Positions 1,407 through 61,466 of a DNA stretch of 64,000 nt are shown piece after piece; positions within the stretch are counted from its first letter, which is position 1, and each line of letters begins with the position of its first letter. A program made the translations under genes and the position numbers. The notes beneath the pieces were generated by a model that saw only the letters and a list, made by a program, of their open reading frames with translations, had not been told where the DNA came from and did not search any database. Source of the DNA: Candidatus Pacearchaeota archaeon (GTDB lineage Archaea; Nanobdellota; Nanobdellia; Pacearchaeales; GW2011-AR1); contig VGKP01000002.1 in assembly GCA_016866975.1 (NCBI GenBank), positions 32,942-96,941 of the forward strand, written 5' to 3'.

Positions 1407-2130
1407 AGCTTCTCAATCGCAGGCAAAATATCCTCAAATTTTGACAAAATCATTAATGGCTTTCCTTTTTTAAGGCGCCCTTTATCATGAAATCCGAAAT
1501 CAACAGCAATTGTACGTAAGCCAACCTTACTCGCTTCAAAAATATCCCCCAGAGTATCTGTTACAAATATGCATTCATCAATCTTTAAATTGTGCTTTGA
1601 AAAAAGTATCCTAAATTTCTCTTCTTTAGATTTGTGCGTTTCAAATCCTAGAATTTCGCTGAATATGTGATTTATGTCAAGGAACTTGACTAAAACTCCA
1701 GCTTTTAAGCTGGAGTTGTTCCTTGAGCATCCAAAAAACGAGCGCCTGCATCAAACTGCGGCTTTTAAGCCGCAGTGGCGCATCGTTTTTTTGATTTTAT
1801 TGTTCATAAAATAACTCTTAATTATGATTTCTTTATTCGAAGTTATAATATACATTTTATATTTTTTGTTTATTTTAGACAGCTCCTCTTTTATTCTTTC
1901 CTCAATTTTCAATACCTTGAACTCCTCTTCCTGTAACTTAAAGAATTCATCAATTGGGCGTAGTTCCTTTGAAAGTAATAAATTGTCATATTCTTTAAAT
2001 GCATTTCCGTTGAACATGTCCTTATAACTATTTTTAGAAATTGAGGGTTTAATTTTTTATATATGCTGTATGCCAGATTAAAAGTGTCATGTATGACGCC
2101 ATCAAAATCAAAGATAACCGACTTGATCAT
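1403..2130 (-). pseudogene. HAD-superfamily hydrolase, split by a 120-bp element plus a 1-nt frameshift
   Basis: Motif I VIFDFDGVIHDT, motif II IITSN, motif IV FVTDTLGDI. Removing 1676-1795 restores the frame (NNKINHIFSEILG); adding one base to the T6 run at 2053-2058 joins the N-terminus; ~202 aa reconstructed. Confidence 0.85.
1676..1795 (+). mobile_element. 120-bp non-autonomous IS200/IS605-like palindromic element (PATE-like), copy 1
   Basis: Follows TTAT, ends TGAT; hairpins ctccagc-ttttaa-gctggag and ctgcggc-ttttaa-gccgcag; identical to 3698-3817; precise insertion in the HAD gene. Confidence 0.85.
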
Positions 2131-2136
2131 ATTAAA

Positions 2137-2212
2137 TAGCGCGGGTGGGATTTGAACCGCACGACCTCGAGGTTATGGGCCTCGCGAGCACTCCAGGCTG
2201 CTCTACCGCGCT
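2137..2212 (-). tRNA. tRNA-Met(CAT), probably initiator
   Basis: AGCGCGG...CGAGG-CC-CAT-AA-CCTCG...TTCAAAT...CCGCGCTA; A1:U72 pair. Confidence 0.88.
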
Positions 2213-2262
2213 GATGATACAGCGGAGCAAGACCTTTTAAAGGTTGCTACCTTTAAAGTACG

Positions 2263-2844
2263 ATGAAGAAGAGTCAGAAGAGCAAAAGGGAGAACATCTG
2301 GAATATTCCTAATACTCTGACCTTTATCAGGGTAGTAATAACTTTCGCGATTATATACTTGATTTTTGCAAGATTTAGTCTTGTCACCGTGGCAATATTT
2401 TTTATAATAGGTATGCTTACTGATTTTCTAGATGGCCAGATTGCCAGGCGTACAAAGACAGTGACTGAGTTTGGAAGGCAATTTGACATGATCGCAGACA
2501 GATTTTTGATGACCATGACTGCCATTGCCTTAATTATCGATTTCAGCATACAGGGAGTATTGACCAGATCTCACATGTTCCAGGTTTTCCTCATCCTTTC
2601 AAGGGAAATTGTCAGTTTTCCTTTCGCCATAGTTGCATTCGTCTGGAGGAAGCCAGTGCCAGATGCAAGATTTATTGGCAAACTGACCACATTCATGCAA
2701 GGCGTGACTCTTCCCGCAATACTCTTGAGTACTAAAAATGAAGTGTTCTCATTTTCATTATATCTAGCAATAGCCACATGCATAATAGGTATATTTTCTG
2801 CATTAACTTACGTTAAGGACTTACAGAATGAGGGATTATCATAA
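2263..2844 (+). CDS. CDP-alcohol phosphatidyltransferase (PgsA-like)
   Basis: NIPNTLTFIR; signature TDFLDGQIARR...FGRQFDMIAD; several TM segments. Confidence 0.92.
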   Translation: MKKSQKSKRENIWNIPNTLTFIRVVITFAIIYLIFARFSLVTVAIFFIIGMLTDFLDGQIARRTKTVTEFGRQFDMIADRFLMTMTAIALIIDFSIQGVLTRSHMFQVFLILSREIVSFPFAIVAFVWRKPVPDARFIGKLTTFMQGVTLPAILLSTKNEVFSFSLYLAIATCIIGIFSALTYVKDLQNEGLS

Positions 2845-3140
2845 TGGCAAAAAAGAATCGTTTCAAGACTATCCAAATTATTGAGAAGGAATTACACGAT
2901 CACGTCATAGAATGGTTGGCCACATTATTGACACTCATAGGAGCGATTTTGAATGCAGGATTGATAAAATTAAGTGTGCTCGACGGCTATACACTCTCAT
3001 TCTATATTTGGTCAATTTCTAATATTCTTTGGATAACCTTCGCTCTCAAGCACAAACACTGGAGTGTTTTCATAACATTTGCAGCACTTCTTTTAGTCAA
3101 CATACTTTCAATTATTACAAACAAACTTTGGTTATGGTGA
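2844..3140 (+). CDS. Small membrane protein
   Basis: 98 aa, three hydrophobic segments; start overlaps upstream stop (TAATG). Confidence 0.7.
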   Translation: MAKKNRFKTIQIIEKELHDHVIEWLATLLTLIGAILNAGLIKLSVLDGYTLSFYIWSISNILWITFALKHKHWSVFITFAALLLVNILSIITNKLWLW

Positions 3141-3152
3141 TGTTCCCTTAGC

Positions 3153-3166
3153 AAAAACGTTTAAAA
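3153..3166 (+). promoter_or_regulatory. Archaeal BRE + TATA box for tRNA-Ser
   Basis: aaaaacg-tttaaaa ending 25 nt before the tRNA 5' end. Confidence 0.6.
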
Positions 3167-3190
3167 GCATTTGATTCTAACCCCAAGTAT

Positions 3191-3339
3191 GCCCGGATGG
3201 CCCAGCGGTTACGGCGCGAGATTGCTACCTAAGGAAACCAATGTTTCCTTGTGGGTCAACCTTCTTTAAGGAAGGAAGACGCAAATGGCAAATATCTCGT
3301 TTCCGAAAGGATTCCCAGGTTCAAATCCTGGTCCGGGCG
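3191..3339 (+). tRNA. tRNA-Ser(GCT) with 66-nt intron at 37/38 (3228-3293)
   Basis: GCCCGGA/TCCGGGC acceptor + G73; CGAGA-TT-GCT-A^A-TCTCG; long variable arm TTTCCGAAAGGATT; intron 3' GGCA pairs with the anticodon loop (BHB). Confidence 0.9.
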
Positions 3340-3447
3340 TATTACCTTCTTGTGATTTTTGAGAGACTCCGAATCTCTAGAGTTTGCCTATAATTTGTAT
3401 TACAAAACCCAAACAAGGCTTAATTAAAAATAAGCCTCGGTAATACA

Positions 3448-3697
3448 ATGAAGATAGATCCCTACAAACACAAGGAAAGGTACTTAGCCTGGAAAGAAGA
3501 AGCCATGAAAGGCATTTCATGCGTTTCTAAGGCTAATTTTGAGATAATAATGAGATTCCTTACAGATATGGAAGTAGGAGCAAATATAGCGAAAGGAAGC
3601 ACAAAGGGGGCGAGAAGCTACATCCGCCTTAATACGCTCAGAGGAAAGCTTTGCTTCTTTGCTAAGAAATTTAACGGGGGCAAGCATGGATTATTAT
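3448..3697 (+). pseudogene. N-terminal fragment of a probable tyrosine recombinase/integrase, truncated by element copy 2
   Basis: Located just downstream of tRNA-Ser; MKIDPYKHKERYLAWKE...GARSYIRLN resembles N-termini of tRNA-adjacent DPANN integrases (from memory); no catalytic domain left. Confidence 0.5.
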
Positions 3698-3817
3698 GTC
3701 AAGGAACTTGACTAAAACTCCAGCTTTTAAGCTGGAGTTGTTCCTTGAGCATCCAAAAAACGAGCGCCTGCATCAAACTGCGGCTTTTAAGCCGCAGTGG
3801 CGCATCGTTTTTTTGAT
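3698..3817 (+). mobile_element. 120-bp PATE-like element, copy 2
   Basis: Identical to 1676-1795; TTAT at left, TGAT at right end. Confidence 0.85.
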
Positions 3818-3952
3818 TTTATTTTGATCTTGTGTCTGTGTTTTTTCCACCAATTTAGGACTAGAATCATTTTGTATATTGATCGAGAATAGGAAAACAG
3901 CTAAAATTACAAGTAATAAGCTCAATCCAATAATGTAAAAGGTCTTTTTCAT
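3818..3952 (-). pseudogene. N-terminal fragment of an exported/membrane-anchored protein, truncated by copy 2
   Basis: MKKTFYIIGLSLLLVILAVFLFSINIQ... signal-anchor-like; the frame runs into the element. Confidence 0.55.
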
Positions 3953-4330
3953 AAGAAATAGTAAACAATATCTATTATAAACTTGTCGGAATTCAAATAT
4001 ATGTTAATTTCATAATATCTTGCTCAATCTGAGATTATTGTGCCGCAAATTGTGTGATTACCTCTAAGTTTGTTGTTTAAAGGATTCGCTGAAAATACTA
4101 TTAAAGCCGAAATAGTAATAACTAGGTAAAAAGTGTATATACAAGCCAAAGATTTTCAATTGTTCAAATTATCTATTTTATTTAGAAATATCTAAAGTAA
4201 GGTATATTTTTTATTAGTCAAGAGCTATTACCGTTTTTTAAAGAATCAATATCATTAAGAAATTATCTTCTGCTATCTATAACATTAAATACTGCTCTTA
4301 CAAATTCCTCTTTTACACAAAGAGGGAAAT

Positions 4331-6136
4331 ATGGAACCAGAAATTATAATTCGAGAGTCATTTTCGGATGAAAGTGACGAGTTTTTTGATAAGATAGAGA
4401 AGAAAAACTTTGATTCCAAGGAGATAATGGAACTTAAGATTGAAGCAGAGGAAGTATCTCAGGACAATGAGATTAAGGAGCTTTTGTCTTATGAGTCTAT
4501 AAAGAAATCTCTTGAATATGACCTTCCTCATCAAAGGGAAGGCGCTCTTAAGATATTGAGAGATCTTAACGGCTCAGGCTTGCTTGCTGACGAAGTAGGT
4601 CTTGGAAAGACAGTGACGGCCGGCATCGCATTGAGGGAATGTATAGAACGCGGACTAGTGAAGAACACTCTTATCCTGACTCCTCCCTCATTAGTAGATC
4701 AATGGGTTGCAGAGCTTAAGGAAAAATTTAATCTTGACTTCAAAATCATTGAAAAAGAAGAAGACTGGGGCACTTCACCATTTGTCATTGCTTCTCTTGA
4801 TAGGGTGAAGATACAATACAAAGATACTCAGATTTTCAAACATGACCGGGCACATAATATCTCCTGGGACCTGTTGATTGTGGATGAGGCTCACAAATTG
4901 AAGGATAAGAATACAGTAAGATGGGAGTTTGTCGATAAATTGAAGAAAAAGAGGTTTCTGATACTTACAGCTACACCTTTTCAGAATGACTTGTTCGAGT
5001 TGTACAATCTTCTAAACCTTCTGAAGAGGGGCCATCTTGGAACTATCCAGGAATTTAAGAAGCAATTCCTTCATAGAGGAAATAAAAGGCACCCTCTTAA
5101 CCCCAATGACCTTAAGAGAAGACTTGACGAGGTAATGGTGAGAAGGAGAAGAGATCAAACAAAAGTAAGTTACAGGAAAAGAATACCTAAGATAGTACCT
5201 GTAGAACTTTCTCAGGAAGAGTATAGGATATATGATTCCATCTGCGATCTTCTCAAGACAAAGTATCTCTCTGCAAATGGAAATGAGATAAATGGGAGAC
5301 TGGTGATTTTTGCTATCTTGCCAAAAATAACTAGCTCATCTCGATCAGCAATGGAGTCGCTTAAGAAGATAGTGGATGATCAGAAATACCATCAGACAAC
5401 AAGAGAGATAGCATCAAGAATACTCTCTGATTATAGAATGGTGAAGAAAGATTCAAAGATAGAGAAACTGGTTGAATTGGTTGGGAATATCCTTAAAGAA
5501 GAGAAAGATGCCAAGATGTTGATATATACAAAACACCCCACTACATTAAGGTATATAGTTGAGAAACTTCAGCCTTTCAATTTAAAGATAGTTGAGTATC
5601 TTGGCGGGCTTGATAGAGAGGAGAAGTCAGAGATTGTAAAGAAGTTCAAAGAAGAGGCTCAGATAATGTTAAGCACAGAGACAGGCTCAGAAGGTCTAAA
5701 TTTCCAGTTCTGCCATATCCTTATCAATTATGATCTTCCATGGAATCCAATGGCTGTAGAGCAGAGGATTGGTCGTTTGGACAGGATTGGGCAGAAAAGC
5801 GATATGCAGATATACAGTCTCGCTACAAAAAAGACTATTGAGGAGCATGTGGTAGATCTTATAATAAACAAGATGTGTTGCATAGGTCTTGTCATAGGAG
5901 AATTACCAATCATATTATTCAATCTGGGCCTAGATGAGCGCGGGACCGGCGGTGTGAATAAGATAGAAGAGATGCTTATGAATGCCTTTATTGATTCGAA
6001 GAATAATCTTGATATTTTTGCATCCGAGGTCGAAAAAATTGCCGAAATGTTGGAGAAAGGCATGGAAGATTACAAAAAGGCTAAGACTGCCACAATGGAG
6101 GTATTGGACAAGAATGAAGGAACTGGCGGAGCTTAA
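4331..6136 (+). CDS. SNF2/HepA-family SF2 helicase-like ATPase (YqhH-like)
   Basis: LLADEVGLGKT, IVDEAH, LTATPFQN, STETGSEGLNFQ, YDLPWNP..VEQRIGRLDRIGQ. Confidence 0.93.
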   Translation: MEPEIIIRESFSDESDEFFDKIEKKNFDSKEIMELKIEAEEVSQDNEIKELLSYESIKKSLEYDLPHQREGALKILRDLNGSGLLADEVGLGKTVTAGIALRECIERGLVKNTLILTPPSLVDQWVAELKEKFNLDFKIIEKEEDWGTSPFVIASLDRVKIQYKDTQIFKHDRAHNISWDLLIVDEAHKLKDKNTVRWEFVDKLKKKRFLILTATPFQNDLFELYNLLNLLKRGHLGTIQEFKKQFLHRGNKRHPLNPNDLKRRLDEVMVRRRRDQTKVSYRKRIPKIVPVELSQEEYRIYDSICDLLKTKYLSANGNEINGRLVIFAILPKITSSSRSAMESLKKIVDDQKYHQTTREIASRILSDYRMVKKDSKIEKLVELVGNILKEEKDAKMLIYTKHPTTLRYIVEKLQPFNLKIVEYLGGLDREEKSEIVKKFKEEAQIMLSTETGSEGLNFQFCHILINYDLPWNPMAVEQRIGRLDRIGQKSDMQIYSLATKKTIEEHVVDLIINKMCCIGLVIGELPIILFNLGLDERGTGGVNKIEEMLMNAFIDSKNNLDIFASEVEKIAEMLEKGMEDYKKAKTATMEVLDKNEGTGGA

Positions 6137-7385
6137 GGAATTCACGGCGAATTTTTTCAAGAATCTCGGCGCAAAGACTATATGGGAAGGGCAGATGCTC
6201 AGGGTAGATAAGGTACCAAAGGATTTCGAGGATTTTTTCGGGAAGAAATCTCCTCTGAAGTTGGTCTTCGATAGGTCTGAGGAAGGTAAGGACACAGAAC
6301 TTATCGCTAAGGGAAGCTTTTTGCTTAAGGCAATAGCTCTTTATCTCGAGAATAAAGGGCAAACGACTCTACTGAAATTAAGGGTTATGGATCCAAAAGA
6401 GCTTCTTAAGCACAAGGTTGTTTTCAATGATTGCGATATTTTTTCATTTGAAAAGAAACACAGCTATAAGACTATGGTCAGGTTCACTTTCCTTACTACA
6501 TTCCAGTATCTTAATGAGAAAGAACAGAAGATGATATCGATATATCTAGAGGAAGGTAAGCCAGTAACTTTCGATGAGAAAAGGTTCCAGTTTGAGGAAG
6601 GAAGAAAGGAAGATATAGAGATATCTGGCATAAAGGAGAATTATTCAACATCTAAGGTTATTTTGAAAGAGCTTCTTAAGCCGCAGGTTGCAGATATAGG
6701 AACTAATTTGAAGTCTAAATTATCTAGGGAATTACAGAGGATAGATTCACACTATAAAAGACAAGAGGAGGAGATCGACAAACAAGTGCAATCATTAAAC
6801 ACGCAATTGAAAGAGCTTGAAGATCCAAATAGCAAGGTCGACAAAAAGAATGCTGAGTTAAAATTAAAGAGAATCAATGAACAGTTGCAAAAAATAACTG
6901 AAGAAGATAAAAAGTCCAAGTTGAAAAAGGAAAAAGATTTCCTTCTTAATGATGAGGTCCAGAAGCACGGGCTCAATATGGATACCAAGCTTTTGAATAC
7001 TACGGTGATATATTATCCAGTTTACGAATGCAGGATGCTATTGAAAAATAACGAGGTCATTGGGAAGCCCTTAGATTTTTTATACGACTCAAAGGAGAGT
7101 AGCTTTACCTCTATAAATTGCGAATCATGCAAGGAGTCTCTCTCTTCTCTGAAATTATGTTCATCCGGACATGTAATCTGCAAATCTTGCATTCTTCCAT
7201 GCAAGGGTTGTACACAGGGATCCTGCAAGATATGCCAGTTCAGGAGATGTAATAGATGCGAGAGAGAATATTGCAAAAGATGTACTAAGAAGTGCAGCCG
7301 GTGCTTCAAGGAGTTCTGTAAGACCCACGTCATTCCAACGAGCCCAACTAAGGTTTTATGTTTGGGATGCTCAGGGAATTTTTAA
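6114..7385 (+). CDS. Partner of the SNF2 ATPase (YqhG-like) with coiled coil and C-terminal multi-Cys zinc-finger region
   Basis: Likely ATG 6114 after GGAGGT; overlaps helicase 3' end; many CxxC pairs in the last ~90 aa. Confidence 0.7.
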   Translation: MKELAELKEFTANFFKNLGAKTIWEGQMLRVDKVPKDFEDFFGKKSPLKLVFDRSEEGKDTELIAKGSFLLKAIALYLENKGQTTLLKLRVMDPKELLKHKVVFNDCDIFSFEKKHSYKTMVRFTFLTTFQYLNEKEQKMISIYLEEGKPVTFDEKRFQFEEGRKEDIEISGIKENYSTSKVILKELLKPQVADIGTNLKSKLSRELQRIDSHYKRQEEEIDKQVQSLNTQLKELEDPNSKVDKKNAELKLKRINEQLQKITEEDKKSKLKKEKDFLLNDEVQKHGLNMDTKLLNTTVIYYPVYECRMLLKNNEVIGKPLDFLYDSKESSFTSINCESCKESLSSLKLCSSGHVICKSCILPCKGCTQGSCKICQFRRCNRCEREYCKRCTKKCSRCFKEFCKTHVIPTSPTKVLCLGCSGNF

Positions 7386-7394
7386 AGTCTTTAT

Positions 7395-7615
7395 GTCAAG
7401 GAACTTGACTAAAACTCCAGCTTTTAAGCTGGAGTTGTTCCTTGAGCATCCAAACCTCAAGAATCGAAGATTCTTGATGGCATCCAAGAACAATGTTCTT
7501 GGTGAAACGAGCGCCTGCATCAAACTGCGGCTCATCAGGAATCTAAGATTCTTGAATGCCATCGAGGATTAACATCCTCGAGGTTTAAGCCGCAGTGGCG
7601 CATCGTTTTTTTGAT
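7395..7615 (+). mobile_element. PATE-like element copy 3 (221 bp) carrying two nested 50/51-bp double-hairpin inserts
   Basis: 120-bp core plus inserts at 7455-7504 and 7533-7583 (120+50+51=221); TTAT/TGAT ends. Confidence 0.85.
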
Positions 7616-7620
7616 ATTAT

Positions 7621-7729
7621 TTCGGGAACCGAAGAAAACCAAACCTCCTCAGGAATCTAAGATTCTTGAATGCCATCGAGGATTAACATCCTCGAGGTTT
7701 AAGTCGCAGTGGCGGATTGTTTTTTTGAT
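7621..7729 (+). mobile_element. Internally deleted variant element (copy 3b) in tandem with copy 3
   Basis: TTAT 7617-7620, variant left end ttcgggaaccgaagaaaac, near-identical 51-bp insert 7647-7697, ends ttttttgat. Confidence 0.7.
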
Positions 7730-7780
7730 TGTAATAATTTAACTAGAAATATTTTTAAATGTCATTCAAAGGCAAAAACC

Positions 7781-8644
7781 ATGGATAACACTAGTACAGA
7801 AAATCCTGTGAAAATAATCAATCAGATAATTACAAACACAGATATTTTCGTCTTTAGTTACAATCCTCAAACAAAACTCTATACATATTCTCGCCCATTC
7901 ACACTCCAAGAAGCCACATTACTGGCAACAGACACAAATACATTCATCAAAAATAACTATGCCTCTGCTAAGGGTCTTCAAGGAAGCCTCGATGTAGATC
8001 CAGTCACAGCAGAGATTTATAATATTAGTACACTCAAAGGCATTTTAGTAAATCAAGTATTAACGGACAAAACGAAAGAAACCAACAATCCTCAAAGACT
8101 TCCAACAATTCAGGAAGGAATTCAGCATTATAATGCAGGCCTACTGAATGCAAACGCACTGTGTAAAGATATTCTAGTCGACCACGGCATTGCCGTCTAC
8201 AGTGATGACAATCCAGATCAAGAAGTTGCACAAGCACTAATAGAGACTTCGAGAACTGCTGTCCTCAACAGTGCAGAACAAGAAATAAACGTCTTGCCTT
8301 TAGTGGCATCATTTTCTTCTCTAGGATTGCGCCCAGGTGGAAAGTGTTATGGAGTACTTCCAGTTATAGTTTCCTCTAAAGGATTGATTTACGGAGAGAA
8401 AGCGCAAGATTTCTTAAACGATAATAACTTCATTCAGGATATTAATGGCGTTCACGGGGTGGTCTGGGACTACTACGACAGTTGGTGCGCCAGCTGGGAC
8501 GATAACTTGAACATTTTCTACAGTAATTGCAGGTTGGGGAGACTTATTGCCGAAGGCAGCGCAGAAATATTAGAAGATGAAATACGCAGTATTTTTGCTC
8601 CCACTCGTTGGAGCCTTGATGCAATTCTCCTAGCAAGGGAATAA
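7781..8644 (+). CDS. Hypothetical protein, candidate DGR target with a C-terminal variable-repeat-like region
   Basis: ATG 7781 (the track's GTG at 7709 lies inside the element); 18 of 21 codons at 8468-8530 are NNC/NNT; TGCC-GAA-GGCA hairpin at 8548-8558. Confidence 0.65.
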   Translation: MDNTSTENPVKIINQIITNTDIFVFSYNPQTKLYTYSRPFTLQEATLLATDTNTFIKNNYASAKGLQGSLDVDPVTAEIYNISTLKGILVNQVLTDKTKETNNPQRLPTIQEGIQHYNAGLLNANALCKDILVDHGIAVYSDDNPDQEVAQALIETSRTAVLNSAEQEINVLPLVASFSSLGLRPGGKCYGVLPVIVSSKGLIYGEKAQDFLNDNNFIQDINGVHGVVWDYYDSWCASWDDNLNIFYSNCRLGRLIAEGSAEILEDEIRSIFAPTRWSLDAILLARE

Positions 8645-26631: not shown

Positions 26632-28101
26632 TTGATGAAAGACAGGATTACACCTCGCGAAGCATTGGAAAGAAAAGCTGCCCCTCTCGTGTTTTTTGAC
26701 CATATTCCTCAATATAACCGGAATCGAATAATCTCGAGTGAACAGGAGAATGGGCAGAAATTAAGGAAAAAAGTGCATAAGGATTACGAAAAGAAAAGTG
26801 GTTGGGAGACCGAATTTACAGCATACTTGTCTGGATTTCTGCCAGATGTGGTGAGTCTTGGGGGAAGGATATATGCAGATGCAAACCATGTAGAGTTTGC
26901 ACGGGCGGAATGCTCAAGCCCTCTGGAAGCAGTTGTTCACGAGGATGCTTTTGACAGGTTCGGTTTTAATCTTCTCACAGGCACCTTGAGACTTGTTCGT
27001 AAGCTCTATAAGAACAGTATAGATTTTGGCAATCCGAAAAGGAATTCTCCTCCTGTAAGCTTCGGCTTCCACGAAAATTACAGCACAAAAATAATGTTTG
27101 GCCAAAGCAATCCTTCAGGTTTGTTGGCATTGGTTCCTCACCTAATATCTCGTACAATCTTTGGGGGTGCAGGATCATTACATAAGGCAAATAAATTTTT
27201 AAGGGCCCAGCGCTCTCTCTTTGTTAATAAATTGTGGAGCTTTAATGCTATCAAGGACGAAAGAGGGATAATCTGCACTCGCGTACAGCCACACACAGAG
27301 ATTTCTGGTCTTCAGAGGCTACAACTTACTTGTGGAGACGCCCTTATATCTCCAGTAAATCGCTTCCTTCTTTATGGCACAACAGCAACGGTAGTTGACC
27401 TAATAGAAGATAGGATAATTCCATTATGTGATTATGACACAAGCTACGCAGTTGAAGATTTTCATGGAATAACTTATGACCCTGAGAACTATATATTAAG
27501 AGGGTTCCCATCTAAGAATTGGACTGCTCTGGATGTACAAAGGAGGATTCTTGATAGTGCAATTAAGTCTTACTCGCATAGGGATCCTCAGACAAATGCC
27601 ATTCTGTTTCTATGGGAAGATACTCTTAATAAGTTGGAATATGATCCATTTCAGCTTGTTGGAAGGCTAGATGCAATTACCAAGAAAGCATTATATACTT
27701 GTCTTGATGAGAGATTTCCAGATGTCCCTGAAGATTCTTTTTGGCAGATGAGGGGCATAGACATGAATTATCACGATATTAATCCAAACTATAGTATTTT
27801 TCAGGTAATGCGTTCCGAGGGGATTATGGAGGATTTATATTCCAATAAATTATTTTCATGGTATATGCAAAATCCGCCTCCAAAAACCAGGGCGCATTTT
27901 AGGGGCAATCTTGCAAAAATTCTAATTAGGGCAAAAGAGGATTTAGCAGTCCTTGATGGAGATGAATGGGATAAATGCGTTCCATTATCAGATATCTACA
28001 ATATTTATCCGAATCTATGGGATTTAGATCTTTCTATAGATGACCCGTTTAATTCTTACAATGATCGTCTCACAGAGATAAAGGGAATTTTATCTCATTA
28101 A
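26632..28101 (+). CDS. Pup-ligase/deamidase (PafA/Dop family) homolog 2
   Basis: GWETEF, GGRIYADANHVEFARAEC, LYKNSID, SFGFHENY, ISRTIFGGAG, AQR, RGIICTR..PH, RLQLTCGD, GRLDAITKK, DMNYHDI, PPKTRAHFRG. Confidence 0.9.
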   Translation: MMKDRITPREALERKAAPLVFFDHIPQYNRNRIISSEQENGQKLRKKVHKDYEKKSGWETEFTAYLSGFLPDVVSLGGRIYADANHVEFARAECSSPLEAVVHEDAFDRFGFNLLTGTLRLVRKLYKNSIDFGNPKRNSPPVSFGFHENYSTKIMFGQSNPSGLLALVPHLISRTIFGGAGSLHKANKFLRAQRSLFVNKLWSFNAIKDERGIICTRVQPHTEISGLQRLQLTCGDALISPVNRFLLYGTTATVVDLIEDRIIPLCDYDTSYAVEDFHGITYDPENYILRGFPSKNWTALDVQRRILDSAIKSYSHRDPQTNAILFLWEDTLNKLEYDPFQLVGRLDAITKKALYTCLDERFPDVPEDSFWQMRGIDMNYHDINPNYSIFQVMRSEGIMEDLYSNKLFSWYMQNPPPKTRAHFRGNLAKILIRAKEDLAVLDGDEWDKCVPLSDIYNIYPNLWDLDLSIDDPFNSYNDRLTEIKGILSH

Positions 28102-28120: not shown

Positions 28121-28238
28121 GTCGGGAACCGATGAAAATCACACCTTTCAAGGTATGGTGGTTCCCGAGCATCTCCAAAAACGAGCGCCTGCAACAAACC
28201 TCGGCTTTTAAGCCGAGGTGGCGCATCGTTTTTGTGAT
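28121..28238 (+). mobile_element. Divergent PATE-like element, copy 4 (118 bp)
   Basis: TTAT|gtcgggaac...gttcccgagcat...caaa cctcggc-ttttaa-gccgagg...gTGAT; compensatory changes in both stems. Confidence 0.8.
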
Positions 28239-43447: not shown

Positions 43448-43567
43448 GTCGCGAATTAGGTTGAAAACTACATTCTTTAGGGCGCAGATGAATTCGCGAG
43501 CATGTCTAAAAACGAGCGCTGCAACAAACAATACCCTTTAAGGTATGGTGCGCATTGTTTTTATGAT
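43448..43567 (+). mobile_element. Strongly diverged PATE-like element, copy 5 (120 bp)
   Basis: TTAT|gtcgcgaatt...aattcgcgagcat...aaacgagcgc...caaa...ttaTGAT; same length as the core. Confidence 0.72.
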
Positions 43568-46104: not shown

Positions 46105-46742
46105 ATGGTTTCCTTAAAAGTATGGATGGGAGTCACAGGAAATCCGCTAAATTTGGGAGTTCTAGAGAAAAGAGTCAAAGACATGGTTGTTGGAGAGAAA
46201 GGATTTATCGAGTATAGGGCAATCTGTTTTATTGAAGGCCAGGTACATTGTCTGAATTTATGTGCAAATGTATATCCAAATTTTAGACAAAAGAAGGGCA
46301 TGCCTATAGAAAGGATTGGAAAGAGAAAAATTGATTATGTCAAGGAACTTGACTAAAACTCCAGCTTTTAAGCTGGAGTTGTTCCTTGAGCATCCAAACC
46401 TCAAGAATATTCTATTCTTGATGGCATCCAAGAACAATGTTCTTGGTGAAACGAGCGCCTGCATCAAACTGCGGCTTTTAAGCCTCAGTGGCGCATCGTT
46501 TTTTTGATGATATTGATCTCAGGCTCGCCAAGCATACATGGTCTATCTGTGAGTATCCTTTTGGAGACCATGACTGGGACATTAATCCTGATATTGTGCG
46601 TCTCAGATATAATGGTGAATGTAAGAAGAGAAAGCACAGGACATTGCAACAACAGCTCTCCAGTGCAGTCAGAAATGAAAACTACGAGAAGGCGGCTGTT
46701 ATAAGGGACAGAATAAATGCAAGATCTAAAAATAAGGATTAG
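46105..46742 (+). pseudogene. UvrB/UvrC (UVR) motif protein split by element copy 6
   Basis: 46105-46338 + 46509-46742 join in frame (KRKIDY-DIDLRL), giving 155 aa ending LQQQLSSAVRNENYEKAAVIRDRI. Confidence 0.82.
46339..46508 (+). mobile_element. PATE-like element copy 6 (170 bp = 120 + 50-bp insert at 46399-46448)
   Basis: TTAT/TGAT ends; precise insertion in a CDS. Confidence 0.87.
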
Positions 46743-48240: not shown

Positions 48241-48241
48241 G

Positions 48242-54624: not shown

Positions 54625-54669
54625 TAGAAAGATTTATATAATAATTATACTCCTGAAAAAATCGCTAAA

Positions 54670-55056: not shown

Positions 55057-55192
55057 AACTTCTTCGGATTTAAAATAGGGAATTTTATAGTAAATACTTA
55101 AAACTATAAATCTTTATTATCGAAGAAAAGTATATTTTTTACCACTATTCCGAACAGAATATATTTTTATATTAAAAGGCTATGGGAAATAC

Positions 55193-55480
55193 ATGATAAT
55201 GGATTACATACGAGATTTCTTTGAGGGAAAAGTTAGAAAGGCCTTGAAATACGCAGAGCACGAGTTCATAGAGGTCGTGGCAAATGCTGCAAGAAGGGCG
55301 GTAAGGCAGGCTATCAGGCAAGCTGTTTCAATGTTTATACTGGCAGTAGCTCTGGTTTTCCTTTCAATCGCCGCCATATTTTTCTTTGTCGAATACCTTA
55401 GCATATCATTTACTCTATCTTTCTTGATTGTAGGCATTATAGTCATGCTCATCGGATTACTGATGAGGATACAAAGATAA
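55193..55480 (+). CDS. Two-TM protein, YqjE/phage-holin-like
   Basis: Helical N-terminus plus two TMs; upstream of a DUF883 gene. Confidence 0.55.
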   Translation: MIMDYIRDFFEGKVRKALKYAEHEFIEVVANAARRAVRQAIRQAVSMFILAVALVFLSIAAIFFFVEYLSISFTLSFLIVGIIVMLIGLLMRIQR

Positions 55481-55490
55481 CGGAGGAATT

Positions 55491-55730
55491 ATGGCACGAA
55501 AAATATTATCTCGCGCAAGGAATCTCGCAAGGGATGCAAAAGAAGCGCTAGAGACAACCCGGGAAAAAGTTGAGGAATACAAGGATACGACTGAGAAGAT
55601 GATAAAGCAACACCCCTTGACCTCAGTTGCCATTGCTGCTGCAGTTGGAGCTCTTGTAGCTCTGGGAGTCAATGCACTCGCGCAGCGTAGAAGGCATACC
55701 TGGAGAGATAGGTTAAGGGATTATTTCTAA
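55491..55730 (+). CDS. DUF883 / ElaB-YqjD family tail-anchored protein
   Basis: Charged helix, then IKQHPLTSVAIAAAVGALV, then basic RRR tail. Confidence 0.8.
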   Translation: MARKILSRARNLARDAKEALETTREKVEEYKDTTEKMIKQHPLTSVAIAAAVGALVALGVNALAQRRRHTWRDRLRDYF

Positions 55731-55805
55731 ATAATATTAGTTATACTCTTGCAGGAAAGCGTAATAAAGCTGTCTTCAAAAAAACACTTTCTTGCCTAAG
55801 TTTAA

Positions 55806-55834
55806 TTTTACCGTCGATTTTCCGACGGTAAAAA
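55806..55834. terminator. Hairpin flanked by T/A runs
   Basis: ttttaccgtcg-attttc-cgacggtaaaa. Confidence 0.45.
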
Positions 55835-55897
55835 ATGGGAATAGGCTTAAATAGTTGTGCCTATTAATAGGTTAAAATTTATATAAAAAAGGTGAAT

Positions 55898-56971
55898 ATG
55901 GAAGAAGAAAAGAAAGAGATACAAAGGACAATAATACCTTTAGTCAATACAGTGGGCAAGGCAAGTGAGGAGGAATTTTTCTCCATCTTGAAGACAGTTG
56001 CTCCCGGTACAAACCTTAGGGCTGCAATAGACTCCACAATAAAGGCAAGCAAGGGAGCCCTTATAGTGATAGCAAATGATCACATTTTGTCTCTTATTGA
56101 TGGAGGGTTCAGAGTGAATTGCAGGTTTACTCCACAGAGGCTTATGGAGTTGACAAAAATGGATGGCGCCATAATACTTTCAAACGATATCAAGAGGATA
56201 GAGTATGCTAATGTCCTTCTCACTCCTGACAGCAAGATATCTACTTCTGAGACTGGCACGAGGCATAAGGCTGCAGAGAGGACTGCTAAGCAGACGGGTT
56301 GCTTGGTCATAGCCATATCCGAGAGAAGACACGATTCTACTGTCTACTATAAGAATATAAGGCATACTCTCAAGGGTACAGACATAATACTTAGAAAAGC
56401 TAATGAGTATATACAGCTCCTCGAGAAACAAAGAGACTCTTATGACGATCATGTGACAAAACTCAATAAACTAGAACTTAAGAATTATCCCAGTTTAGGC
56501 GGGGCAGTCCATGTAATTCAGAAAGGAAAGATGATACAGAAAATCACCGAGGATCTTAAGAAGTTTATTATGGAGCTGGGTAGTGAAGGGACATTGTTGA
56601 AGGCAAGACTTAGAGAATTGAACATAGGTGTAGAGAAAGAGACTTTGCTTGTAATAAAAGATTATACTAGGTTGGATGTCAAAAAGTCAAAGATTTTGCT
56701 AGACGAATTATCATATGATGACCTTCTTGATGTAGACTGTATACTTCATACTCTCGCATATGATAATCTAGTGCAGATAGAGCCTATCAAAGGCTGGAGG
56801 ATGCTTTCAAAGACATCTCTGCAGGAGTCTGACATCGCAAAACTAATCAAGGAAAAGAACAGTCTGGGAGAAGCCATTTATTCAAATGTCAAGACTTATT
56901 TTGAGATAATAGGAGAAGACAAGGCCAAGACTTTCAAAGAAGAGATTGAGAAGATAAAGATGAACCCTTAG
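55898..56971 (+). CDS. disA: DisA-like diadenylate cyclase
   Basis: VAPGT.LR, ELTKMDGAIIL, ETGTRHKAAER, ISERR; DisA linker; ATG 55898 after GGTGA. Confidence 0.9.
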   Translation: MEEEKKEIQRTIIPLVNTVGKASEEEFFSILKTVAPGTNLRAAIDSTIKASKGALIVIANDHILSLIDGGFRVNCRFTPQRLMELTKMDGAIILSNDIKRIEYANVLLTPDSKISTSETGTRHKAAERTAKQTGCLVIAISERRHDSTVYYKNIRHTLKGTDIILRKANEYIQLLEKQRDSYDDHVTKLNKLELKNYPSLGGAVHVIQKGKMIQKITEDLKKFIMELGSEGTLLKARLRELNIGVEKETLLVIKDYTRLDVKKSKILLDELSYDDLLDVDCILHTLAYDNLVQIEPIKGWRMLSKTSLQESDIAKLIKEKNSLGEAIYSNVKTYFEIIGEDKAKTFKEEIEKIKMNP

Positions 56972-58968
56972 GCAAACTTCTTTCTAGAGACAATAGCAAT
57001 TAATGTGATCAGGATAATCATGCCGATTATAGACATCCATTTACTTAACTTGTCCATCGATGTCTCTTCATATTTAAACTCTACAATACCTTTTGCATAT
57101 ACGAGCATGAAATCAGGAGAGGCCCGATATATCTTGATCTCTCTTCCATCCTGGTAAGCTTTCCAATTAGGGAAATATGATATTTTTACAAGTACTGGCA
57201 CTTCAATTGCAGAATTTACATTGAATTTAATATTGTCTTGCAGCTTACTGACTTCTGTAATCTCAAGAGAAGTGTTTTGCGATTTTTCATATTGTGGACC
57301 GGCTTCATCTACAAGTAATTCTTCTTTTATTCCTTCTGAGAATAACCATTGAAGGTTTAGTTCTTTCCAGCTCAGAGGAGATACTTCCCTTAATTTCCTG
57401 TCAACAATCTCTATCAATCTAGAGTCTCCTATCTTGTATAATGAATAATTTACTGTCCTTCCATATTTGCTGTACTTAGTAACATCATGTATGCGAATCC
57501 ACTCTTTCCTTGCTTTATCATCAGATATAATCGCATAATTAATATTGAAATGGTTTAGCTGGTACGGCAATATTTCACTTATCAGGGAGAGGTTATTCGG
57601 CGGGTATTCGGAATAAATCCATGCTCCCCATGTCAAGGATTTCTGATCGATTTCTTTCTCTAGGTTAAGAATATATTCTCCAGTCCGTGTAGATTCAACA
57701 TATAATCCTTTAACGCTGAAGAACTTGTTCTCTAATGGAAGCATATGTTGCAGGACATGAGGCGCGGTCTCTTCATCATACGATGCGACAACAAATACTC
57801 TCCCGTCTATCGGTATTGAGATGGGAGTTAAATTCATTTGATTAGGGCCCTCAAGATTCAGATTTCCTGGATTTAATATCAGGAACAAGCTTGCAACTAA
57901 TATGAATATGCTGATGACGATTGATTTTCGGTACAATGATAGCAGGGCAAGAGGCAGAAGAAGCAATATGAAATACATTAATCTATAGAAATGGAAATTT
58001 ATTCCTGAAAAAGCAATTCCTATTATTGCAAGCGCAACGACAAATAGAAGGCAGAGCGCTAAAGGATACATTGACTCTCTTTCTTTGGCATTTATTACAT
58101 AAACTGCATACAAAATTGATATGAATGCAAGCAACCCTATCTCCCCATTGTTCGCTAGATATATTATAGACATATATGACTTTTTGAGTATGAAAGGGAT
58201 TGTCCAGAAAGCTGTAAGGAGAAAAGAAAGTCCTGCATGTTTGAACAGGAATGTTCTGAATTTTCCCTCTTTCCAGTAAAGTAGGGTGAAAGATAAAAGG
58301 AGGAATCCTGCAACAATTGCTGCGACTAGATGGCTTAATATTATTGCAGAGAATAATATAGTGGGAAGTATAAATTTACCACTTTCTCTTGCTTTTATCA
58401 ATGACGCAAAGTAGAAAAAGAAAAGCATCATGCCGAACGCATGCGTTATCAATCCAATGTTTATACTTGAAGAAAGATTTCCCCCATAATATGTAGTAGG
58501 AAAGAGGAATAATGAAGAATACATGAGAAGCATGGCTATGGCAGCCTTCTCTTTTGAAAATTTTAATGACCTTGCAAGTACATAGAAAGATAAGGGCATC
58601 AATACATAAGTCAATGTAAATAATATTCTCAAAGACCAGGTGATAGGCAAGATGTAAGACAATGCAGAGGCAAGATAAGTATAAAGTGGAGGATAGAACT
58701 GGTTATGTGCATAACCTGTATAAAAGAATGGGTTCCAACTGAAGAATCCAGGAAAGACATATTCTTTCTCAAACCATACTGAGAAATAAAGGCCTGCATG
58801 GTCCCACATAAGCATGGCGTTGTCAAGAAGTATTGGCAAGAAAAGATATAATATAGAAATATATACAACTATAAAGCTTGCCCAAATGACTATTTTTTCA
58901 CTTATCCAATTTCTTATCTTTATATCAAGTTTGTTCCAATAGCCCTCTATATGATCTGGCACTATCAT
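56968..58968 (-). CDS. GT-C-like / 6-pyruvoyl-tetrahydropterin-synthase-related membrane protein
   Basis: WD..G.Y, WNPFFYTGY...QFYPPL, many TMs, KISYFPNWKA C-terminal domain. Confidence 0.75.
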   Translation of the reverse strand: MIVPDHIEGYWNKLDIKIRNWISEKIVIWASFIVVYISILYLFLPILLDNAMLMWDHAGLYFSVWFEKEYVFPGFFSWNPFFYTGYAHNQFYPPLYTYLASALSYILPITWSLRILFTLTYVLMPLSFYVLARSLKFSKEKAAIAMLLMYSSLFLFPTTYYGGNLSSSINIGLITHAFGMMLFFFYFASLIKARESGKFILPTILFSAIILSHLVAAIVAGFLLLSFTLLYWKEGKFRTFLFKHAGLSFLLTAFWTIPFILKKSYMSIIYLANNGEIGLLAFISILYAVYVINAKERESMYPLALCLLFVVALAIIGIAFSGINFHFYRLMYFILLLLPLALLSLYRKSIVISIFILVASLFLILNPGNLNLEGPNQMNLTPISIPIDGRVFVVASYDEETAPHVLQHMLPLENKFFSVKGLYVESTRTGEYILNLEKEIDQKSLTWGAWIYSEYPPNNLSLISEILPYQLNHFNINYAIISDDKARKEWIRIHDVTKYSKYGRTVNYSLYKIGDSRLIEIVDRKLREVSPLSWKELNLQWLFSEGIKEELLVDEAGPQYEKSQNTSLEITEVSKLQDNIKFNVNSAIEVPVLVKISYFPNWKAYQDGREIKIYRASPDFMLVYAKGIVEFKYEETSMDKLSKWMSIIGMIILITLIAIVSRKKFA

Positions 58969-59754
58969 CTAGCACCAGCCAAATACTTGGCAGAAAAATC
59001 CATCGCCAGATCCAGAGCCACTGCTTGTAGTCACTTTATTTTGTCCACGACAGTAAGGTTGTCCGTTTGGATGTTTTGCACATACATCTCCATTCTTACA
59101 ACATATTGCATATTCATTGAATTCATCTCCAGTTCCCTGGCAAAGAACATCTGAACCACAGCCTTTCTCAGGGATTACACTGCATCCCCAAATTGTTTTT
59201 TTGAGGAAACCCGGAGTTCCAGGTAGACCCATCTTTTTAAATTTACATTCCTGGTTTGCTGTACAACATTCTATTGTCTCGCCTTTTGGAGGACAAGCAC
59301 TTTCTCTTGCTGCAACATTACAACCTTGTTCTGCTTGCTTTGCCGTAAGACAGACGCCATGCTCTTTATCTCCGAGACCTTGCACTTTGCAAACTTCTTT
59401 CTTATTCTTGTCACAGCAGATTTCTCCACATTGCATCTGACCTTTAGAGGCATCGCATTTCTTCTTGCAGTAATAAACAATTCCAGGCAAGCTATCTCCA
59501 TCTTCATCCGCATTACAACATACTTTTTCTTTATAACATGATTGACCAGAAAAACAGCAGCCTTTTCCGCACTTCTGCGCCCTAGGATCATCACTGAAAG
59601 GGGCTTGTCCACATGCTCCAGCCTTGACTGGGTTAGACATTGTCCCTGTCCCTGAACTTACGGCGAGGCCTGTCTTCTCTGATTTAGGAAGAAATGATAT
59701 TATAAGAAGCAGAGCCACTACCAAAGCAACTATTCCCACGACTTTTTTCATCAA
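58969..59754 (-). CDS. Exported Cys-rich repeat protein
   Basis: Signal peptide; about 28 Cys in recurring C-xn-CC-x5-7-C units. Confidence 0.8.
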   Translation of the reverse strand: MMKKVVGIVALVVALLLIISFLPKSEKTGLAVSSGTGTMSNPVKAGACGQAPFSDDPRAQKCGKGCCFSGQSCYKEKVCCNADEDGDSLPGIVYYCKKKCDASKGQMQCGEICCDKNKKEVCKVQGLGDKEHGVCLTAKQAEQGCNVAARESACPPKGETIECCTANQECKFKKMGLPGTPGFLKKTIWGCSVIPEKGCGSDVLCQGTGDEFNEYAICCKNGDVCAKHPNGQPYCRGQNKVTTSSGSGSGDGFFCQVFGWC

Positions 59755-59894
59755 TTATTCAATGTAATTTCCGTTTATAAGTATTTCTTTAAGGTATAAA
59801 ATAAATATCAAAGATGCTGAAGCCCACGCCGTAACCTAGCGTACTGGGGTATATCTGGGAGATTTTTGTGTAGACAGAAAGGGTACATGCAAAA

Positions 59895-60198
59895 TTAATC
59901 TACTTTTGAAATAGGCATAGACAAGTATTTTTGTATGTCGAAAACTCTCGAAGAAACGGCAGGTTCTTCATAAGTATTGATATAAACGCAATTTCCTTGA
60001 AGACCTTCAATTAAGGCATAATCATTCGATGCGATAAAAACCTGTAATCTCTCAGTGTACCGTTCTATTTTCTCTGCAATTTTTCTTTGGAATCTGAATT
60101 TATTCACTGTATCAAGATAGATTGTAGGCTCATCCATTATTGAGGTCTTGAGACTTCCCGACATAAGGATGATCAACCACTTGAAGGTAACTGATCGA
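59895..60198 (-). pseudogene. C-terminal fragment of an ABC-type ATPase
   Basis: IMDEPTIYLD Walker B/D-loop; degenerate DQLPSSG* in a neighbouring frame; no Walker A. Confidence 0.6.
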
Positions 60199-61200
60199 TT
60201 AGAGAAAGATACTCCAATAGGTATCAATAAATTCATCTGTTCCGTAAGAAATCAGCGAAGCATAGTGTTTTCCATCTAATTTCCAAGTATCTGAGAGATC
60301 GGCTTCCCGCATTGCATCCAGGTATTCATTTCTGTTCTTCTTGTGAATGATTGTTGGTGGCCAATTACTTTTGATAAGAATGTAATTCATGATCATTCTT
60401 CCTGTTCTGCCGTTTCCATCCATGAATGGATGTATCTTCTCAAATTTATGATGAAAAACACTAGCTAAAACCAGAGGACGCAGCTTATTCTTATGTCCAT
60501 AGTACCACTTCAACAGCAAATCCATATCTGTTTTGACATACTTTCCAGGAGTCGCATCAAAATTGCTCCTCATTACCAGAATATCTGTAGTTCTATACCC
60601 TCTTCTCTCATCAATATTCTCAAGGAGCTTATCATGAATAGAAATTATCAGTTCGTGTGTAATTTCTTTATTTGGAGAACTCAAGAGTTCAAAAAACACC
60701 TTTTCAGTATTCTGCAAGTCATAGATTTCCCTTAGAGTCTTTCCCTTAGGAGTGATTCCTTCATTCAAGAGATCTCTTGCTTCATCAAGATTGATGGTGT
60801 TTCCTTCTATGGAGGCAGTATTGTAAGCAAACTCAATGACATAAGTTTTGAACGCATCCTTCTTTGTCAAGCCATCCAATCTGTTGAAAACATCATAGTA
60901 ATGTAACCTACAGGCTTCTACTTCTTCAGTCTTGCCCTTCAGAAAAGAGTCTTGCTTGAGCTTCAAAGCTTGTGCTTTTTCAAGAAAATGGTTTGATTCG
61001 AGAAAGGAATGAATCTTCTTGTAAGATTTTCTAATCTGGTCCTTAAGCTTGGGCAGTTTTTCTAGATTTGATTTTACTTCTTCGATCGAGCTTCCCAAGT
61101 AGGCAATGTCTTTCGCTAGGATTTTACCTTTTTTCCTTTCTGAAGCTCTCAAATAATAATAGTTCCCATTACCAATCGGCTTCTTGTATATATAAACCAT
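60199..61200 (-). CDS. Fic-family protein
   Basis: HPFMDGNGRTGR intact Fic motif; AYNTASIEGN. Confidence 0.95.
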   Translation of the reverse strand: MVYIYKKPIGNGNYYYLRASERKKGKILAKDIAYLGSSIEEVKSNLEKLPKLKDQIRKSYKKIHSFLESNHFLEKAQALKLKQDSFLKGKTEEVEACRLHYYDVFNRLDGLTKKDAFKTYVIEFAYNTASIEGNTINLDEARDLLNEGITPKGKTLREIYDLQNTEKVFFELLSSPNKEITHELIISIHDKLLENIDERRGYRTTDILVMRSNFDATPGKYVKTDMDLLLKWYYGHKNKLRPLVLASVFHHKFEKIHPFMDGNGRTGRMIMNYILIKSNWPPTIIHKKNRNEYLDAMREADLSDTWKLDGKHYASLISYGTDEFIDTYWSIFL

Positions 61201-61295
61201 AGATTCTAGGAGTAAGAAGTGTATTTAAATCTTACCCTCTACAATTATAATTAATAATGTAGAGGGTAAAGAGTTCCTATTTAAGCCTTTCTCAT

Positions 61296-61466
61296 GTCAA
61301 GGAACTTGACTAAAACTCCAGCTTTTAAGCTGGAGTTGTTCCTTGAGCATCCAAACCTCAAGAATCTTCGATTCTTGATGGCAGTCAAGGATTTACATCC
61401 TTGATGGCACGAGTGCCTGCAACAAACCACACTCCTCAGAGTGTGGTGGCACATCGTGCTTTGGAT
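61296..61466 (+). mobile_element. PATE-like element copy 7 (171 bp = 120 + 51-bp insert at 61356-61406)
   Basis: Left half identical to copy 1; follows TCAT; right stems changed compensatorily (gcacgagtgcc/ggcacatcgtgc, ccacact/agtgtgg); ends GGAT. Confidence 0.8.

Follow-up and report, generated by a model that had tools for sequence, protein, structure and literature searches.

Gene-less elements with IS200/IS605-type ends in a reduced Pacearchaeota genome and their probable mobilisation by a Y1-HUH transposase

The stretch of DNA considered here (the window; 64,000 nucleotides of contig VGKP01000002.1, below C2, from the Candidatus Pacearchaeota archaeon assembly GCA_016866975.1) harbors eight copies of a short element with a basic form of 120 nt and no transposase gene of its own. 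These copies very probably represent non-autonomous elements of the IS200/IS605 type, resembling the palindrome-associated transposable elements (PATEs) and moved in trans by a transposase, TnpA, of the Y1-HUH class. This interpretation, put forward in an initial annotation of the window, is supported by the presence of such a TnpA in the same genome, by the matching hairpins of the element and the insertion sequence (IS) encoding this TnpA, by empty sites in a sister species, and by a code relating guide and target bases. The co-resident enzyme, designated type-1 TnpA, is probably the mobiliser itself.

Copies of the element and their insertion sites

All eight copies in the window lie on the forward strand exactly where the initial annotation had placed them (Table 1), and its account of their borders was borne out: TTAT precedes seven copies and TCAT one, while seven are closed by TGAT and one by GGAT. 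The latter is a mutated end, since three sister copies of the same type (type c) end in TGAT. As had also been noticed, the tetranucleotides AAAA and CAAA stand directly 5′ of the left and the right inner hairpin, respectively. The foot of either hairpin is open to more than one definition: when single-stranded DNA (ssDNA) is folded freely, the terminal A or AA of the guide may bind T or TT from the 3′ side of the hairpin.

In the whole assembly (0.806 Mb, 31 contigs), a search with nhmmer (E<1e-10) retrieved 59 copies, 53 of them complete and six cut by contig ends, well above what chance would give. They occupy both strands, many of them at contig ends, and make up about 1% of the host DNA; 11 copies are mutually 100% identical. 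The left flank reads T/T/A/T in 50/42/50/51 of 51 copies, 42 of 53 copies following TTAT and the rest TnAT variants, and the bases after the element display no conservation. The two halves of the element recombine freely, giving rise to mosaic A-a, A-b, B-a, B-b, and A-c forms. Copies of the element were encountered in several lake metagenome runs independent of each other and, within the genus, in 13 of 16 species, so the copies are real and not assembly artefacts, a possibility that the initial annotation had left to be checked. The positions of the elements differ from species to species, and Logan contigs of lake-water DNA runs break inside every copy; among these contigs, none spans an empty site or contains a TGAT|GTCAAG junction, a result that is neutral as to polymorphism and circles.

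The copies are real insertions with exact boundaries. One of them (C25:5965-6084, 120 nt) splits the Nudix domain of a Nudix hydrolase gene, and another (C1:116277-116396, 120 nt) splits a 5-hmdU-kinase-like (HMUDK) domain, leaving profile positions 28-223 in the N-terminal part and 225-275 in the C-terminal part. In the closest sister species, G016, both genes are uninterrupted, and the joined proteins of the present genome align to their orthologues without a gap over the junction. At the Nudix site, the sequence AAATTTAAT is followed by the 120-nt element and TTTCTC, and the G016 orthologue reads AAATTCAATTTCCTC. In another species, G009, a related element is inserted exactly between the tnpA codons for KYRY and KMF. 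The comparison with empty sites, proposed together with the original claim, thus revealed an exact insertion of 120 nt at the predicted boundaries and no target-site duplication beyond an unresolvable AT. Excision of the copies in silico left an open frame of ≥40 codons on both sides at 25% of copies vs. 68% of random positions; hence, most copies are intergenic or situated at gene ends.

Terminal inverted repeats were sought at the ends of the element and none were found: the left end begins GTCAAGGAAC and the reverse complement of the right end begins ATCAAAAAAACG, with no similarity between the two. The right end finishes with a T-run followed by GAT. Since inverted terminal repeats are wholly absent, a DDE-type mechanism is disfavoured.

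The interrupted HMUDK-like gene (C1:116034-116990) deserves a comment of its own. It encodes the 5-hmdU DNA kinase helical domain PF18723 and has intact orthologues in G016 and G004. This family is tied to thymidine hypermodification of phage DNA and is unexpected in an archaeal genome of 0.8 Mb.

The guide/cleavage-site code

In IS608, the bases of the guide (g) and of the cleavage site (c) pair as g1-c2, g2-c1, and g4-c4, g3 being an invariant A and c3 an unpaired A; its codes are AAAG/TTAC and GAAT/TCAA (PMC3201880). The rule had been quoted correctly in the initial annotation, and it holds by natural covariation both in the clade of the co-resident IS and at the left end of the element. 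The IS was compared with relatives in the genomes G032, G021, and G009, in three metagenome contigs, and in 54 GTDB loci; judging by record titles, the clade is common in metagenome-assembled genomes (MAGs) of Woese-, Pace-, and Nanoarchaeota. At the right ends, GAAA before the hairpin occurs with a TCAT end (at least eight loci) and GAAG with TCAC (at least nine loci), with no exception. At the left ends, where the offset is constant (12 nt ahead of the hairpin), AAAT occurs with TTAA (10 loci) and ATAT with ATAA (two loci), and looser cases fit AAAC/TTAG, AAAA/TTAT, and GATA/TCAT. Both g3 and c3 are always A, like in IS608. As judged from this covariation of sequences, the IS608 rule demonstrably operates in this archaeal IS clade.

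The element conforms to the same rule. The initial annotation had predicted that AAAA should specify TTxT and CAAA should specify TGxT, and the observed codes AAAA/TTAT and CAAA/TGAT fit. The left code AAAA/TTAT recurs in the IS at the loci L160 and L141. Moreover, the left guide tracks the flank: a genus-level search uncovered eight copies, from four species, with CAAA as the left guide, and six of these eight follow TGAT or TGAG vs. three of 52 copies with AAAA (Fisher 4e-5). The exact assignment of the guide at the left end seems probable, about as certain as the identification of the TnpA as the mobiliser.

The co-resident IS200-type transposase

An intact Y1-HUH TnpA of 152 aa is encoded at C10:122-577 (PF01797, 77 bits). 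It carries the HLH (HUH) motif and the catalytic Tyr, and it aligns to the TnpA proteins of IS608 and ISDra2 and to Sulfolobus IS200 transposase structures. The contig containing the window shares its final 127 nt, letter for letter, with the beginning of contig C10, so the left end of the IS could be placed at the very end of the window (Table 1). The expectation that a TnpA acts in trans from outside the window was therefore correct insofar as the enzyme exists in the genome, but the left end of its IS (63814-64000) and the start of tnpA (63995) are inside the window. Similarly, the proposed search of the genome for a Y1-HUH TnpA with the same ends did recover a TnpA, in an IS with hairpins of the same kind, but the exact ends are not shared. 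Contig C21 contains a second junction into the same IS, which thus has at least two upstream junctions (C2 and C21). Searches of the genome for TnpB, IS110 (DEDD), and Y2 enzymes found none.

The likeness between the element and the IS resides in their inner modules. In the element, TTGACTAAAA is followed by a CTCCAGC/GCTGGAG hairpin; in the IS of the same genome, TTGAGAAGAAAT is followed by a CTaCCAGCC/GGCTGGAG hairpin. The left hairpin of this IS has the stem CCAGCC/GGCTGG and the loop TTTA, and that of the element has CCAGC/GCTGG around TTTTAA; if the closing T-A pair is counted, the TTTTAA loop of the element equals the TTTA tetraloop of the IS. At the locus L135, where the TnpA is 84% identical, the left hairpin of the IS is exactly that of the element (CTCCAGC TTTTAA GCTGGAG). 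Recognition by TnpA involves the hairpin, neither guide nor site being read, so that elements using different codes could be within reach of an enzyme from this clade.

A second IS200 type (C6:1-230 and C12:26683-26912, cut by contig ends) was considered as a helper and rejected, its hairpins with TCTTG loops being unlike those of the element. Its right end comprises a CCCCACGG/CCGTGGGG hairpin with the TCTTG loop, preceded by GATG, and ends in TCAC, which fits the guide rule. On C6, it precedes the 16S rRNA gene by about 400 nt; further representatives of this type are present in G003, G006, and G013.

The junction on C21 (positions 1-190, reverse strand) is peculiar when compared with window positions 63810-63873: the left-end hairpin of the IS is followed by the right tail of the mini-element (GGCGCATCG, T7, GAT) and not by the 22 nt of the IS. 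The result is a hybrid unit of 56 nt with a single hairpin, delimited by TTAA and TGAT.

Putative mechanism of mobilisation

In the proposed mechanism, TnpA would bind both inner hairpins on the top strand, each with a G+C-rich stem of 7-8 bp and a loop of the TTTA type. The four bases 5′ of each hairpin would serve as a DNA guide, AAAA pairing with the flank TTAT and CAAA with the last four bases of the element, TGAT, in the scheme g1-c2, g2-c1, g4-c4. The enzyme would then cleave after TTAT and after TGAT and reseal the donor without a footprint. The excised strand would be joined 3′ of another TTAT in ssDNA, probably in the lagging-strand template (“peel and paste”). The likeliest enzyme would be the IS200-type TnpA of the IS beginning at the window end, or a close relative. 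We infer the single-stranded intermediate as well as the role of the outer stems.

Copies cluster by strand: all eight on the window contig C2 are on the plus strand, all 11 on C3 on the minus strand, and all three on C9 on the plus strand. GC skew is positive on the element strand at 41 of 53 copies (p = 8e-5). Insertion into one template strand at the replication fork would give such a pattern. The orientation of the elements is unrelated to that of the neighbouring genes.

Covariation and folding

The architecture of two long stem-loops, recognised in the initial annotation, is supported by covariation. An alignment of 21 distinct copies, drawn from 10 species within the genus, served to evaluate a model of four helices (an outer and an inner stem per half): 97.1% of the cells are paired vs. 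83.2% in shuffles. Changes on both sides occur in 24 of 36 pairs, and the control with the partner slid by 1-3 columns gives 36-46%. The A-run and the T-run of the right end covary as well, AAAGCACGA occurring with TCGTGCTTT and AAAGACGA with TCGTCTTT. The folding energy of copy 1 as ssDNA is -41.9 kcal/mol (z = -10.9), a stability matched by the complementary strand. Since G.T mismatches (15) and A.C mismatches (12) are equally frequent, nothing points to a structure at the level of RNA on either strand. When the flank is included in the fold, AT|G pairs with the CAT of the linker and the terminal GAT pairs with ATC.

Objections and alternative explanations

Several observations weigh against mobilisation by a TnpA of this kind. 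Neither the own genome nor 40 relatives nor 54 GTDB loci yielded an IS with the CAAA/TGAT right end or with the outer stems; hence, the element is not a simple deletion derivative of any IS seen. The most variable base of the target is c2, though the rule pairs it with g1; positions c3-c4 are AT almost without exception, and this AT is also able to pair with the CAT conserved in the linker. The covarying outer stems hold both cleavage sites at the base of helices of 9-14 bp, beside the conserved linker GAGCATCC and far from the guides, so that these helices would have to melt before the guides could pair with their sites, and the TnpA model gives no account of the strong conservation of these stems. 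Furthermore, G013 possesses 11 copies of a 93-nt form (e.g., L040:183-275) lacking the left inner hairpin together with the AAAA guide, and the flanks of this form are still TnAT (six TTAT, two TAAT, and one each of TCAT, TGAT, and CTAT). Because AT both precedes and closes the copies, a 2-bp AT duplication is compatible with the empty sites taken alone. Finally, among the 11 species of the genus that bear the element, the assemblies of five yielded no Y1_Tnp, one of them being a MAG of 10 contigs with identical copies, and the genus contains just one further type-1 TnpA, a pseudogene. The force of the last argument is weakened, since about 970 metagenomic relatives of the TnpA are almost all on contigs shorter than 2 kb, a size lost in binning.

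Some of these difficulties would be resolved if the elements were moved by an unrecognised hairpin- or junction-specific nuclease or recombinase reading the three-way junction of both ends and the linker GAGCATCC, the likeness to IS200 hairpins being convergent or ancestral. Such an enzyme would agree with the multiplication of the 93-nt G013 variant, in which the left inner hairpin is missing but outer stem, linker, and right half persist, as well as with the pairing of both termini to the linker region in the fold, the element-bearing MAGs lacking a detected Y1_Tnp, and the strong selection on the outer stems. Still, no candidate enzyme is known, and the inner-guide model predicts the association of left-end CAAA with TGAx and of AAAA with TTAT. 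The hairpins are identical or nearly identical to those of TnpA-bearing IS, and loss of TnpA from MAGs is expected for a multi-copy IS on contigs of this size. We regard this explanation as unlikely.

Mobilisation by the co-resident TnpA should also be distinguished from a system like that of the repetitive extragenic palindromic sequences (REP) and the REP-associated tyrosine transposases (RAYT), in which repeats maintained by the host, e.g., as terminators or mRNA stabilisers, are spread by a domesticated single-copy Y1 transposase in the service of the cell. The enzyme class would be the same (Y1-HUH), and the units are likewise modular, with recombining halves; the element also ends with a stem and a T7 run reminiscent of an archaeal terminator, and the gene on its 5′ side is co-oriented with it in 32 of 50 cases (p = 0.065). 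However, the TnpA here belongs to a normal IS with its own left and right ends and at least two junctions (C2 and C21), and no inverted REPs flank it; nor does the TnpA occupy a single syntenic locus, conserved and flanked by the repeats, in the relatives. The elements disrupt genes, and their positions vary between species; a GTAG-type REP head is lacking, and the units of 55-60 nt are in direct, not inverted, orientation. A REP/RAYT-like system thus appears very improbable.

Even less credible is the notion that the copies are primarily genes of structured non-coding RNA or cis-regulatory RNA elements that were spread secondarily. Four helices with many compensatory changes and the tolerance of extra hairpins in loops and the linker only would suit it, but the window yields only tRNAs above the gathering threshold of Rfam 15, the best match on the element being Thr_leader at a chance-level E of 0.37. 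The equal numbers of G.T and A.C mismatches reveal no wobble tolerance, and both strands fold equally well. Coding genes are interrupted, near-identical copies occupy non-orthologous sites, and orientation is not tied to the neighbours.

A conventional miniature inverted-repeat transposable element moved by a DDE transposase with a 2-bp AT duplication, for which one could invoke the AT at both borders and an ISC1217-like DDE transposase gene on C8, has next to no probability given the absence of terminal inverted repeats, the asymmetric conservation of TTAT (on the left only), the copy C4:39731 with a CT left flank but an AT right end, and the interruption of the only DDE gene seen (the ISC1217-like one) by a copy of the element itself. 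The possibility of an archaeal bulge-helix-bulge intron was dropped: the flanks are unrelated between copies, and no bulge-helix-bulge with exon sequence is possible.

Variants and nested units

In the 93-nt form, the left half is represented by the outer stem only, with a TTGACA loop; the linker is kept and joined to at least three different right halves. In addition, about 19 copies of a unit of about 50 nt, consisting of two small hairpins of the TCAAG..CTTGA type, were found only within the 120-nt elements, where they occupy either the linker or an inner-hairpin loop; this unit displays no TTAT/TGAT code. The ~50-nt units recall the SMR-A repeats that insert into the palindromes of the Haloquadratum PATEs.

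It is conceivable, if rather doubtful, that the family goes beyond IS deletion derivatives and forms a modular hairpin-in-hairpin system, in which end modules of the IS200 type reside within self-pairing outer stems, are exchanged between copies, are retargeted by single guide changes, and are invaded by ~50-nt units. In such a system, the outer stems may unite both cleavage sites at the conserved linker.

Nesting of hairpins is also encountered in the IS. At L020, L135, L136, and many other loci, the 5′ arm of the right-end hairpin of the IS is interrupted, ahead of the CTTTAGGG part, by an additional small hairpin or by two of them, so hairpin nesting is a general habit of this IS clade.

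In three copies of the element (C1:46344-46463, C1:39229-39351, and C6:34049-34166) and several relatives, the loop TTTTAA is swapped for its reverse complement TTAAAA with the stems unchanged, as expected of recombination or template switching across a DNA palindrome.

When reading starts at its second base, the 120-nt A-a form is free of stop codons, and an ATG in this frame is supplied by TTAT|G. The open frame may be due to chance: over 40 codons, it is common for one frame out of three to lack a stop. Within one set of copies (C8:20765-20884, C8:6418-6537, and C19:4465-4584), one A-a copy is in frame within the ISC1217-like DDE transposase gene, and two further copies are in frame with open reading frames (ORFs) 1067 and 1487 codons long. 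The majority of the other in-gene copies are entered in a frame that stops after VKELD, i.e., after five codons, and break the gene.

Comparison with known systems and significance

PATEs are defined by the lack of inverted repeats, near-terminal IS605-like palindromes, the lack of a target duplication, and the absence of coding capacity (PMC3119063), and the present elements are PATEs by this definition. They share further traits with the Haloquadratum walsbyi PATEs HqIRS46 and HqIRS56, such as a length too short for a transposase, tens of copies, smaller repeats inside palindromes, and proliferation despite the scarcity of intact IS200-type transposases (PMC3119063). In contrast to the Haloquadratum PATEs, the IS-type hairpin and its guide are nested here in a longer covarying stem, the halves are mosaic, two stem-loops stand back to back with their feet forming the ends of the element, the host belongs to DPANN, and no TnpB (IS1341-type) partner was found. 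New in this family are a nested architecture that is fully self-pairing, halves exchanged in mosaic fashion, retargeting in nature, and the group to which the host belongs.

With IS608 of Helicobacter pylori and ISDra2, the elements have in common a Y1-HUH TnpA, subterminal hairpins, a tetranucleotide target 5′ of the left end, and the lack of a duplication (PMC3201880; PDB 2VJV, 2XM3). The guide is likewise positioned 4 nt 5′ of the hairpin foot, and the left cleavage site is 19-20 nt from the hairpin; the clustering of copies by strand may reflect an insertion bias like that of these IS. Unlike IS608, the element is gene-less and uses the codes AAAA/TTAT and CAAA/TGAT, and its right cleavage site is 16 nt from the hairpin compared with 10 in IS608, both spacers being held in the outer helices. 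The co-resident IS and its clade resemble the element in their CTCCAGC-like or CCGCACC-like stems, TTTA or TTTTAA loops, A-rich guide, and a spacer starting with a TTGA-type sequence, whereas the co-resident IS carries tnpA, lacks outer stems, and has AAAT/TTAA at its left end and GAAA/TCAT at its right end.

Bacterial REPs, their composite forms known as bacterial interspersed mosaic elements (BIMEs), and RAYTs are comparable as short multi-copy hairpin repeats associated with a Y1-HUH enzyme, but they are single hairpins of 20-40 nt with a GTAG head, arranged in inverted pairs, and the single-copy RAYT is flanked by REPs. Rickettsia palindromic elements (RPEs) are palindromic repeats of about 100-150 nt that can reside in genes, as is the case here, where one reading frame of the 120-nt form is also open along its whole length. 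To our knowledge, neither a mobilisation mechanism nor a guide code has been established for RPEs. Another difference from RPEs is that most in-gene copies here bring translation to a stop after five codons.

Elements of the IS200/IS605 group are of broad interest as the source of the TnpB and IscB genome editors and as the only transposons known to choose their target by DNA-DNA base pairing. The family described here represents a natural, multi-species record of the guide code, in which five guide/site pairs obey the IS608 rule and single-base changes in the guide shift the target. It also illustrates that selfish DNA, probably active, breaking genes and fragmenting assemblies, is present even in the extremely reduced (0.8 Mb) genome of a DPANN symbiont. 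The sequence data support the DPANN affiliation indirectly, through an archaeal 16S, the genome size of 0.8 Mb, and TnpA relatives in MAGs of Woese-, Pace-, and Nanoarchaeota. With a length of 93-120 nt, these elements offer compact substrates for asking how much of an IS end is needed by TnpA. Independent mobility of the 93-nt variant and of the 56-nt unit on C21, if real, would place them among the smallest known transposable units.

Features of the window

The features located in the window are compiled in Table 1.

Table 1. Element copies, nested units, and the left end of the IS200-type IS in the window.
Feature	Position	Strand	Characteristics
Copy 1	1676-1795	+	120 nt, type A-a; TTAT before, TGAT end
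Copy 1, left guide	1692-1695		AAAA
Copy 1, left inner hairpin	1696-1715
Copy 1, linker			GAGCATCC
Copy 1, right guide	1752-1755		CAAA
Copy 1, right inner hairpin	1756-1775
Copy 2	3698-3817	+	120 nt; 100% identical to copy 1; after TTAT
Copy 3a	7395-7615	+	221 nt; core plus two nested ~50-nt double-hairpin inserts
Copy 3a, first insert	7455-7504		~50-nt unit; in the linker
Copy 3a, second insert	7533-7583		~50-nt unit; in the right inner hairpin loop
Copy 3b	7621-7729	+	Tandem, 5 nt after copy 3a; after TTAT, starts TTC, ends TGAT
Copy 4	28121-28238	+	118 nt, type B-b; 20 nt past the stop of ORF 26632-28101
Copy 5	43448-43567	+	120 nt; most divergent copy, old
Copy 6	46339-46508	+	170 nt
Copy 6, nested insert	46399-46448		~50-nt unit
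Copy 7	61296-61466	+	171 nt, type A-c; after TCAT, ends GGAT
Copy 7, linker insert	61356-61405		~50-nt unit
~50-nt units elsewhere			Also on C3, C5, C7, C8, C9, C13, C15, C24
IS200-type IS, left end	63814-64000	+	Target TTAA 63810-63813; guide AAAT 63822-63825
IS left-end hairpin	63826-63846		TTTA loop
IS tnpA start	63995		ATG; gene runs on into C10

Some of the copies bear on the adjacent sequence or depart from the basic form. The stop codon of the ORF 3448-3711, upstream of copy 2, falls within that copy. Copy 3b is internally deleted, being devoid of the 3′ arm of the left half, the linker, and the 5′ arm of the right half, and the loop insert is present. All four stems of copy 4 are unlike those of copy 1 in sequence, with complementarity kept. 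Copy 5 has a weaker fold (z = -2), with compensatory changes in the outer stems and decay of the left inner hairpin. Copy 6 divides one ORF into the parts 46105-46338 and 46509-46742, the C-terminal one with a UVR motif, and excision of its 170 nt in silico yields a single frame of 156 aa. An empty site for this copy was sought in the 16 genomes of the genus, which contain no orthologue of the C-terminal half of the ORF.

Apart from the element, the window contains an intron-containing tRNA gene at 3191-3339 (Rfam, 40.7 bits), missed by ARAGORN. In three lake runs, the contigs carry 18 other letters in place of 82 nt of this gene (3228-3309), a difference that is a strain variant of the intron.

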